Position numbers: made by a program. Positions 1 to 3,000 of a DNA stretch of 4,617 nt are shown here, piece after piece; positions within the stretch are counted from its first letter, which is position 1, and the number at the start of each line of letters is the position of its first letter. Source of the stretch: a virus (Duplodnaviria; Heunggongvirae; Uroviricota; Caudoviricetes); IMG/VR virus record IMGVR_UViG_2526164690_000037; one strand, given 5' to 3'.

Positions 1-3000
1 TGCTGAAACAGTGGGATGCACTGAACGTGTACTGCAGTAATGGCTGGGTGGAAATCGACAACAACATCGCAGAGAACGCCTTACGGGGAGTGGCCGTAGG
101 CCGGAAAAACTGGATGTTCGCGGGTTCCGACAGCGGTGGTGAACATGCGGCGGTGTTGTACTCGCTGATCGGCACATGCCGTCTGAACAATGTGGAGCCA
201 GAAAAGTGGCTGCGTTACGTCATTGAACATATCCAGGACTGGCCGGCAAACCGGGTACGCGATCTGTTGCCCTGGAAAGTTGATCTGAGCTCTCAGTAAA
301 TATCAATACGGTTCTGACGAGTCGCTTACTGTCATTCTCCTGTTCTGCCTGTATCACTGCCCACTTCATCCAGCCCCTTAACATCCTGCCACGGCCCGTC
401 ACCAAACCTGACCTGCAAATGCTGAAAAAAACCCTGAACCCGTGTGGCATCTTTGGGGGCAAGAAAGGTCAGTCCGGTGATGAGTGCGCCATCTGTATCC
501 GGGAACCAGCCATTGCTGTTTGTCTCAATAATGTTTCCCGGCCCCAGACGAAAACGGATTTGTGTCTCCCCCGGGTCGCCCTTCGGTCCCTGAGGTCCGG
601 TTGCCCCCACCGGGCCAGCCGCACCTGTTTCTCCTTTCGGTCCCTGTGGGCCTGCCGGGCCTGCCGCACCGGTATCTCCCTTTGGACCCTGTGGACCTGC
701 ATTTCCCGTCAGACCGGTCTCTCCCCGCTCTCCCCTGTCACCTTTCGGCCCCTGCGGGCCTGCCGGACCAGCATCACCTGCCGGTCCCCGTTCGCCGGTT
801 GCCCCGACAGGGCCGGTGTCACCGCGCTCTCCCTTATCACCCTTCGGCCCCTGAGGACCCGCGGGCCCCTGTTCCCCCTTTGGCCCGGGAGGTCCCACCA
901 CGGTGGGGATTCTGTTTACGGCTTCTTCCGCCGCTATCCTGCTTTGTTCCGCTGACTGTGCGCTTTCTGCTGACTCCCGGGCTTTTTCTGTTGCGGTCGT
1001 TGCATCCCTGGCTGCATTACCGGCTGCACTTTCTGCCGTCTTTCTTGACAATTCAGCTTCTGCTGCACTTTGTGATGACTCACTGGCTTTTTGAGCGGCC
1101 GCAGAAGCCGAGGACGAGGACGCCTCCTCTGACTGCTTTGCTGAGGCTGCACTTTCTGCCGCCTGCCGGGCTGACTCCGATGCCTCCCCTGCTGAAGTGT
1201 CAGCATTTGCAGCGCTCTCTTCTGCCTGACTGGCTGATATGCCGGCATTCCTCGCTGACGTCTCCGCCTCTCCGGCATTCTTCTTCGCCTCCTCAGCGTG
1301 ACGCGCCGCTTCTTCCACCATCAGTTCAAAACGACGCAGTGCCTCCGGCCGGACGTCATCCTCCGACATGGCACCGAGAAAATCATTCAGCGTCCCCGGT
1401 TGAGAATCTTCATACACGGTGATGGTCCCGGCATGTGACGGAGGAAATCCCTCCACCAACAGAATGACGCTGTACTGACCGTACTCAACGTCCATGCTGT
1501 AACGTCCGGCTTCATCCGGATTTTCAGAGGCCACCGTGTTCACCACCACCGTGCTGCTGGTTCGTCTGGCCTTCAGCACAATGGTGCAGTTCTGTACTGG
1601 TTTTCCTGTGCCATCTTTAAGCACGCCAGAAATTTTTACTGTCATACTTTTCCACCAATAAAAAAAGCCCGCAGCAGTGACGCCACGGGCTTCAGGACAG
1701 TGTAACTTTACGTTTCCTCAAACGCAGTTCACCCCATAAGGTGGATGAACCTGCGTATCATAACAATATTTACAGAAGATAAATCGGCGTCTGTTGTCAG
1801 AAACGGTATCCGATACCAACAATAAATGCATCCGATCGCCAGTCGCCACTACCGGAACCGTCATAAGCAAGGTCAATGGTCACGGATTCGGTCGGGTTAA
1901 ACTGCACGCCAGCCCCCCACGCCAGAGACGTGTTGCTGTGGCGACCGTCATCACTTCCGGTCAGCACATCGTGCGTTTTCCCCTTGTTGTCAGTTACGCG
2001 GAGATAATCCCCGGAGAAAGTCGACACACGGCTGTAAGCCACACCCGCCATCGCATACGCGCTGAACCATTCATTCACGCGTACAGACGGCCCCGCCATC
2101 ACGCTGAACCAGCGGTTACGCACGGAATCTTCATGCCAGCGGGTATCGCTGTAGCGCGTTTTTGGGTCATCCTCAGCATTGGCATAACTGAAGGACGTAA
2201 TCAGCCCCAGCGCGTCCATAAACTCATAACGGTATTTCACGTTAATCCCGTTCAGATCATCACTACCGGGAACGTTCGTCGAGGCATGGAGATACCCCGC
2301 GCTCAGCGTGGACTGATGTTCTGCTGCACTCGCTGGCGTAGCAGCGGCGACCTGCCAGACTACTGCGGACAAAATAACAGCACATAATTTACGCATAATT
2401 ACCTCTCGCTTTTCTGCAATAAAAAAGGCGCCATTTCTGGCGCCCGTATCTGGGTTATAAAATTCAGCTAATCGTGATGCCTGCAGTGGCTTTCTTCATC
2501 ACCACAACCAGCAAATCGCTGATACTTGCTGTGGGATACCAGTTATTTACCAGCCATGCTGACACCGAAAACTCCAGTGTCATGTGACCGTGACCGGCAG
2601 GCATATCAATAACACCACTGTAAATCAGCGTATTATCCAGCGCGGTACGGTTATAAATTTCAGCACCGTTTTTCCGCACTATCAGACGGCATGAGGAGTA
2701 AATATCAGTATGCTCTTTCTCATGTTTAGCGCCGCTGAATGCCACCGCCGGAATAACAATCTGCCGGTCAAACGGCTGATCGTCATAAACCCTGACGGTA
2801 ATGGTTCCTGATGGCCACCGCTCCGGTGCACGGGAGTCCCGGGGGAAAGCTTTGCCCACTGTTTTAACGAGATCGCCTTCAATCTGGTTCGCGGACAATT
2901 TTCCCAGAACCCGACAGTTCTCGTTAATCGTGACGTTGTTGAGCGTCCCGGAGTTCGCATTCACGTTACCGCTGATATCGGCATTTTTCGCCGTCAGCCG

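Follow-up and report, generated by a model that had tools for sequence, protein, structure and literature searches.

Does an insertion sequence (IS) that ends almost at the stop codon of a tail fiber gene mark a gene that has been cut short, or one that was always of this length? The question is raised by a 4,617-nucleotide stretch of a Caudoviricetes genome (IMG/VR record IMGVR_UViG_2526164690_000037; we call this whole stretch the window), in which a side tail fiber gene, stf, encodes 437 amino acids (aa) and stops two bases short of an IS66-family element. The Stf fiber of phage lambda needs the chaperone Tfa, and an original prediction, made on the sequence by itself, expected about 770 aa or more followed by tfa. 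It offered two explanations: either the IS had inserted beside a natively short, collagen-type fiber gene, or an IS-associated deletion had removed the distal part of the fiber together with tfa, leaving the last ~78 aa as the start of a longer domain. We find that stf is a complete gene of the EPclA class beside which the IS66 element landed with no deletion, a conclusion that we hold to be nearly certain.

The fiber gene is complete

Chromosomes of O26:H11/O111:H11-type enterohemorrhagic Escherichia coli (EHEC) strains match the window at 100% identity, and at least 80% of it lies in one place in 119 of 5426 complete E. coli genomes. For strain 2013C-4538 we fetched 28.6 kb around the window (locus L001) and used the annotation of the Prokaryotic Genome Annotation Pipeline (PGAP), in which stf is an intact coding sequence named 'prophage tail fiber N-terminal domain-containing protein' (WP_000216552.1). 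Its open reading frame (ORF) begins with ATG and ends with a TGA at 334-332 on the gene strand, and its domains, running to both ends of the protein, are listed in Table 1. Residues 1-93 match the 94-residue 'Tail fiber protein' chain of PDB 9e7m, an entry from the Ur-lambda study (E 2e-50). The following region (residues 134-250) consists of 32% A, 21% S, 15% E, and 6% L, V, and I together, in agreement with the leucine-poor trimeric coiled coil described by Ghosh et al. (PMC3368898), and the shaft (residues 251-361) consists of 37 Gly-X-Y triplets with no interruption. Past the collagen segment, Pfam finds a single domain, PF06820 (Phage_fiber_C, here PfC), and residues 363-426 cover the full model. 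A sequence search of the C-terminal 78 aa against the PDB gave no match at an E below 0.4.

Homologs end where this gene ends. Phage records covering at least 80% of Stf number 141 by tblastn, and in the best 30 of these the alignment spans residues 1-437 at 97.5-98.6% identity. For example, the Shiga toxin (Stx) phages Stx2a_1447 (AP012536) and Stx1_699 (LC567827) carry a 1314-nt stf with the same end codon and a 270-nt ORF beginning 1 nt further on, after which effector genes come. The last 78 aa also served as query in an exhaustive HMMER search, which returned only 50 representatives; among the matches listed, those reaching query residue 78 all run to the final residue of the protein concerned (297-374 of 374, 37-110 of 110, and 72-144 of 144 are examples). 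Had the gene been truncated, intact, plaque-forming relatives should read on past residue 437 into another domain and have a Tfa-type chaperone gene (PF02413) behind the fiber gene, and the 437-aa form should be confined to sites next to an IS; we found the opposite.

The site of insertion exists widely in its uninterrupted form. With a 694-bp reconstruction of the junction between stf and the next gene (an 89-aa ORF, orf89) as query, counted at 80% coverage or more, the uninterrupted junction is found in 697 of the 5426 complete genomes; where the listed rows extend across it, their annotation gives a fiber gene and a PfC-only gene. The empty site GGAGAATGACATGAAC is present in locus L003, and locus L004 contains the uninterrupted junction at 99.9% identity. 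The best match to the empty site, JNE132847, is an orthologous prophage without either of the two IS copies found at our locus, and it has the gene order J, lom, stf (437 aa), orf89, a DUF1076 pseudogene, nleA, an integrase remnant, nleH1-2, and nleF. When the two IS elements, each with one of its flanking target duplications, are excised from L001 in silico, the result aligns with JNE132847 as a single high-scoring segment pair of 10,838 columns with 99.585% identity and 7 gaps, and the two Stf proteins differ only by E157V. Because the excised L001 is collinear with this IS-free locus, neither IS is associated with a deletion. The 8-bp duplication is also present at the far end of the IS, where its absence would have counted against completeness, and we found no evidence that contradicts the completeness of the gene.

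The original prediction had thus described the local sequence correctly, including the 437-aa length, the TGA at 332-334, its distance of 2 bp from the terminal repeat, and the C-terminus that it quoted. The lack of tfa also holds, both in the window and in the PGAP annotation of the surrounding 28.6 kb. Of its two explanations, insertion beside a natively short collagen-type gene is correct and agrees with the intact target duplication, the canonical 437-aa length, and the collinear IS-free ortholog, and the deletion is refuted by that same duplication, by the empty sites in 697 genomes, and by the collinear locus. The C-terminal segment, which the prediction could not assign to a known domain and took to be the start of a longer one, is the whole of PF06820. 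The expectation of about 770 aa or more plus tfa is sound for Ur-lambda Stf but fails for this class of fiber. A check proposed there, on where homologs end, gave ends at the same codon in the Stx phages and at query residue 78 in the listed representatives that reach it; a second, on whether tfa follows them, found the 89-aa PfC-only ORF instead in IS-free loci. The same C-terminus with the same stop in other genomes, which the prediction had named as the observation that would speak against truncation, was encountered many times over.

Table 1. Features of the window, in order of position (L001, locus of strain 2013C-4538)
Feature	Position	Strand	Basis
3' end of IS66-family element (ISCro1-like)	1..329	+	PF03050 + PF13817; 'IS66-like element ISCro1 family transposase' (PGAP)
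C-terminal end of its transposase	1-299	+	PF03050, PF13817
Right terminal inverted repeat of the ISCro1-like IS	300-329	+	Reverse complement GTAAGCGACTCGTCAGAACCG... / GTAAGCGACTCGTCAG...
Target-site duplication TGTCATTC (8 bp; gene strand GAATGACA), includes the stf stop	330..337	.	Identical 8-mer at both IS ends
stf-type gene, complete, EPclA-class collagen-like side tail fiber, 437 aa	332..1645	-	ORF; Pfam to both ends
11-residue tail after PfC	335-367	-	Followed by stop at 332-334
PfC domain (PF06820, Phage_fiber_C), residues 363-426	368..559	-	Model positions 1-64/64, E 6.3e-36
Collagen triple-helix shaft, residues 251-361, 111 aa	563..895	-	Triplet count; PF01391
PCoil region, residues 134-250 (117 aa), Ala/Ser/Glu-rich	896..1246	-	Composition
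PfN domain, residues 1-133, N-terminal tail anchor	1247..1645	-	PF08400 positions 1-133/134, E 1.1e-68
Hairpin and T-run (terminator-like) between lom and stf	1664..1693	-	13-pair stem, TTTTTATT tail; consensus match only
lom (Ail/Lom outer-membrane protein), 199 aa	1797..2396	-	PF06316 positions 1-199/199, E 3e-121
Gene J (host specificity), 3' part, separated from the 5' part by the second IS	2464..3498	-	PF09327 + PF12421
Target-site duplication AAAAAATC (8 bp) of the second IS, ISEc22	3491..3498	.	8-mer repeated past the other IS end, L001 17953-17960
End of ISEc22-type IS66-family element, inserted in J	3499..4617	-	PF03050 + PF13817; PGAP name

The insertion next to the stop codon

The whole ISCro1-like element occupies L001 9631-12329 (2699 bp). 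It ends at position 329 of the window, with two bases (330-331) between it and the stf stop, and it is bounded by imperfect GTAA-type repeats, the right one, GTAAGCGACTCG..., pairing with the left one, GTAACCGGCTCA..., at L001 9631. The copies of its target duplication lie at L001 9623-9630 and 12330-12337, so that the second copy falls outside the window, 2.7 kb away. Without the IS, the site has the gene-strand sequence ...ACAGGAGAATGACATGAAC..., which holds the TGA of stf, one C, and the ATG of the 89-aa ORF. Both this element and the second IS of the window have the three-ORF organization of the IS66 family (tnpA, tnpB, and DDE transposase) together with its GTAA-type repeats and 8-bp target duplications, and they show no relevant difference from that family.

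These observations are best explained as follows. The element transposed into GAATGACA, 8 bp that take in the stop codon of stf and the initial base of the orf89 start codon; these 8 bp were duplicated, and nothing was removed. The native stop of stf is left in place, and orf89 retains its ATG, which now lies 2.7 kb away from both its ribosome-binding site and the transcription of the late operon. The sole real effect of the ISCro1-like IS is that orf89 is parted from its ribosome-binding site; the IS has probably silenced orf89, judging from this arrangement of the sequence.

Relation to known fibers

The closest known system is EPclA (e.g., ECs2717 and Z0982; Ghosh et al., 2012, PLoS One 7:e37872, PMC3368898), which has the same modules with the same dimensions, including PfC at 363-426 and a length of 437 aa, and which occupies the same place after J and lom in lambdoid prophages. 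Table 2 of that study gives 437 aa, a PCoil of 116, and a Col of 111 for most copies in O157:H7 strains EDL933 and Sakai. The sequence features by which the class is recognized are found here: PF08400, a PCoil poor in L, V, and I, a single uninterrupted collagen segment of 111 aa, and a full PfC followed by an end of ~11 residues. This copy differs in lying in an O26/O111-type prophage and in having an IS directly after its stop, and nothing of substance differs. The protein family, its domain structure, and the 89-aa downstream companion are already in the literature, and in this respect the result is an ordinary one.

With Ur-lambda Stf the fiber shares the N-terminal collar or anchor (PF08400; residues 1-93 against PDB 9e7m), and both are trimeric side fibers encoded after J and lom. 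The rod of Ur-lambda Stf, however, is longer, and its distal receptor-binding region is gp37-like, with a distal coiled coil structurally homologous to T4 gp37 (PMC12617516), whereas the fiber here has collagen and a 64-residue PfC knob. Of the features of a lambda-type Stf/Tfa system, then, the collar is present, and the gp37-like distal region and the downstream Tfa gene are absent. The EPclB fibers of short-tailed Stx2 phages (933W L0121, Sp5 ORF67/ECs1228, and phi24B gp61) are built from the same PCoil, collagen, and PfC modules and have the same 89-aa PfC-only gene directly downstream (ORF68 in Sp5), but they are 645 aa long, with two collagen segments split by a Pf2 repeat, and they belong to a podovirus tail.

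How the fiber may work

Much of what can be said about the working of this fiber comes from experiments on its relatives. When expressed, residues 363-426 of EPclA (PfC) form a trimer, Col-PfC forms a trimeric collagen helix that refolds rapidly, PCoil is a trimerizing coiled coil, and the whole protein is a dumbbell ~55-60 nm long; trimers, collagen triple helix, and dumbbell shape were shown for ECs2717 (Ghosh et al., 2012; PMC3368898). In Ur-lambda, residues 1-91 of gpStfN are a collar domain that contacts gpV and gpM and is joined to the fiber by a flexible linker (PMC12617516). Given the 97-98% protein identity of the Stx-phage copies, the Stf described here would be expected to form the same trimer, triple helix, and dumbbell. 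Three chains would be held on the tail by PfN, the same collar domain as in Ur-lambda Stf, and would then continue as a trimeric coiled coil rich in Ala, Ser, and Glu, followed by a collagen triple helix of 37 triplets. The fiber would end in the small PfC domain, which trimerizes alone and which probably both nucleates the folding of the collagen and forms the distal knob. Fibers of this class are natively 437 aa long, with neither a lambda-type distal domain nor tfa, and normally have as their downstream neighbor a second PfC in the form of an 89-aa ORF. It is reasonable to infer that PfC binds the receptor.

Some limits apply to this picture of the fiber. The receptor-binding role of PfC is reached by inference, and the binding of BamA by the PfC-type domain of phi24B gp61 has been questioned (bioRxiv 10.64898/2026.04.10.717836). 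From the 78 C-terminal aa and an alignment of 14 rows, AlphaFold2 produced a model with a mean predicted local distance difference test score (pLDDT) of 50.7 and a predicted template modeling score (pTM) of 0.39; PfC has no PDB relative by sequence, and the AlphaFold2 model is too poor for a fold search. The alignment of PfC carries little information because almost all of the available homologs are fragments, 80-99% identical, that come from draft assemblies, and according to the phi24B preprint the C-terminal region of gp61 likewise could not be modeled with confidence by AlphaFold (bioRxiv 10.64898/2026.04.10.717836).

Long proteins among the weak HMMER matches were considered as relatives of PfC and set aside, as their scattered sub-threshold Pfam matches look like compositional noise. 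The exception among them is P0037, a 642-aa protein with bacterial immunoglobulin (Ig)-like repeats (Big_7) and a weak match to PF06820 (E 3e-6), which faintly suggests that the fold of PfC may be an Ig-like beta-sandwich, distantly related.

The PfC-only gene downstream and alternative explanations

The gene that follows stf in IS-free loci is not tfa but the 89-aa, PF06820-only orf89, which in L001 lies at 9354-9623, on the far side of the IS and outside the window. PF06820 (E 5e-36) is its only Pfam match; its protein is 34% identical to the PfC of Stf and matches phrog_576 over 89 of 89 positions. It starts 1 nt past the stf stop, with a Shine-Dalgarno sequence, AGGAG, within the last stf codons. 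In the Stx2 phage Sp5, ORF68 is an 89-aa polypeptide with the phage fiber C-terminus domain and was classed as non-essential by a systematic deletion study (PMC5155283). We rejected a fusion of stf and orf89 by read-through or frameshifting, since orf89 is in the +1 frame (TGA-C-ATG) and, in Sp5, no frameshift signal joins ORF68 to the fiber gene (Mondal et al., 2016; PMC5155283). We also set aside the idea that orf89, which has an LCGC motif, is a lipoprotein, since its N-terminus, judged by eye only, has no hydrophobic signal segment.

What might such a gene do? The conserved orf89, which comes after each fiber gene of the class, may be a partner of the fiber, capping the PfC trimer at the tip or exchanging into it, or it may be a recombination cassette that swaps tips between co-resident prophages; we put these roles forward tentatively and with low confidence. 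One genome contains a protein that touches on the question. P0013 (92 aa) is a hybrid in which the N-terminus of orf89 is joined to the C-terminal half of the Stf PfC, and its gene has a normal 437-aa stf on one side and a normal orf89 on the other (contig BDKZ01000033.1 of GCA_005381265.1, L005 1382-3246). It looks like the product expected from unequal crossing-over between two PfC modules, as a tandem duplication, and it hints at a cassette role for orf89.

A cassette role can be taken further, to an explanation in which orf89 is a spare tip that recombines with the PfC end of stf within or between prophages, its protein is not needed, and the IS merely displaces the cassette by 2.7 kb. Mondal et al. 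(2016; PMC5155283) proposed Sp5 ORF68 as a reservoir for tip variation, and the hybrid just described is a natural recombinant of the kind that this would produce. However, the 34% protein identity between the modules makes them a poor substrate for homologous recombination, the frame, start, and ribosome-binding site of orf89 are intact in hundreds of genomes, which suggests selection on the protein, and the recombinant is a single one from a draft assembly. We consider this explanation unlikely.

Alternatively, orf89 could be the counterpart of tfa, a chaperone or tip adaptor that co-assembles with the PfC trimer, in which case the IS would uncouple the pair and disable maturation of the fiber. 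It occupies the position that tfa has in lambda, translational coupling is suggested by the single nucleotide between the two genes and by a Shine-Dalgarno sequence that lies within stf, the pair is kept in the 697 genomes with an uninterrupted junction, and orf89 belongs to the same trimerizing PfC fold family as the fiber tip. Yet orf89 has no similarity to Tfa-type chaperones, its counterpart in Sp5 is dispensable (PMC5155283), and an obligatory Tfa-like chaperone seems unlikely for this fiber because recombinant EPclA, Col-PfC, and PfC trimerized in laboratory E. coli, with no co-expression of a downstream gene mentioned (PMC3368898). On this balance a tfa counterpart strikes us as distinctly improbable.

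An IS66-mediated adjacent deletion that took the distal half of a ~770-aa Stf along with tfa, leaving the last 78 aa as a stump with a fortuitous stop, could appeal to the 2 bp between stop and IS end and to the longer, gp37-like Stf of Ur-lambda (PMC12617516), but it is refuted by the 8-bp duplication at both IS ends and by the empty-site comparison, with its collinear IS-free ortholog and its 697 complete genomes whose junction contains the stop, and, taking also the complete PF06820 match, the same stop in Stx phages, and the published canonical length of 437 aa (PMC3368898), its chance of being right is negligible.

The prophage around the fiber gene

Our reading of stf as a complete gene does not make the phage a complete one. 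The source of the window is a defective lambdoid prophage of O26:H11/O111-type EHEC. Gene J is intact (3474 nt) in the IS-free ortholog; here PGAP annotates its 3' part as a pseudogene without the N-terminus. The terminal repeat of the ISEc22 copy, GTAAGCGTGCAG..., begins at position 3499, its transposase gene ends at 3536 and continues beyond the edge of the window, and this second IS, taken with its target duplications, lies at L001 15491-17960. The prophage is defective whatever the state of stf, because J carries both ISEc22 and an internal stop in its 5' part (the latter also noted by PGAP). A mechanically listed 349-aa ORF with a TTG start at 2464-3513 represents the 3' part of J continued into the end of the IS, and its start is not real.

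Downstream of the fiber region, L001 carries the type III effector genes nleA, nleH1-2, nleF, nleG, and espM1 by PGAP annotation, with nleA annotated as frameshifted in strain 2013C-4538. The effector stack behind stf and orf89 (L001 1-9300; L004 6750-12694) opens with a DUF1076/NleG-like pseudogene and has interspersed in it a 72-nt fragment of PfC (L001 5286-5357) and a pseudogene for an integrase, a pattern suggestive of a second prophage that fused behind the first and of which these are the remains.

Besides the hairpin between lom and stf, further GC-rich hairpins with T-runs lie between J and lom (2426-2445, minus strand) and just after orf89 (L001 ~9315-9345). In a promoter and terminator scan, the counts in the window were not above shuffle expectation, and the hairpins carry no weight of their own; the one after orf89 suggests that orf89 is the last gene of the late transcription unit.

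Implications

The finding bears on little more than correct annotation. A short collagen-type fiber gene in an EHEC prophage is not to be taken for a truncated stf of lambda, and an IS next to a stop codon, where its target duplication is intact, is no evidence of a deletion. The biological question that stands next to this finding is the role of the conserved PfC-only 89-aa protein, whose gene the IS has parted from stf in the genome of the window. More broadly, the window is an example of stepwise decay in an effector-carrying lambdoid prophage of O26/O111 EHEC, in which one IS lies in J and another between stf and orf89, and the cargo of effector genes is retained.

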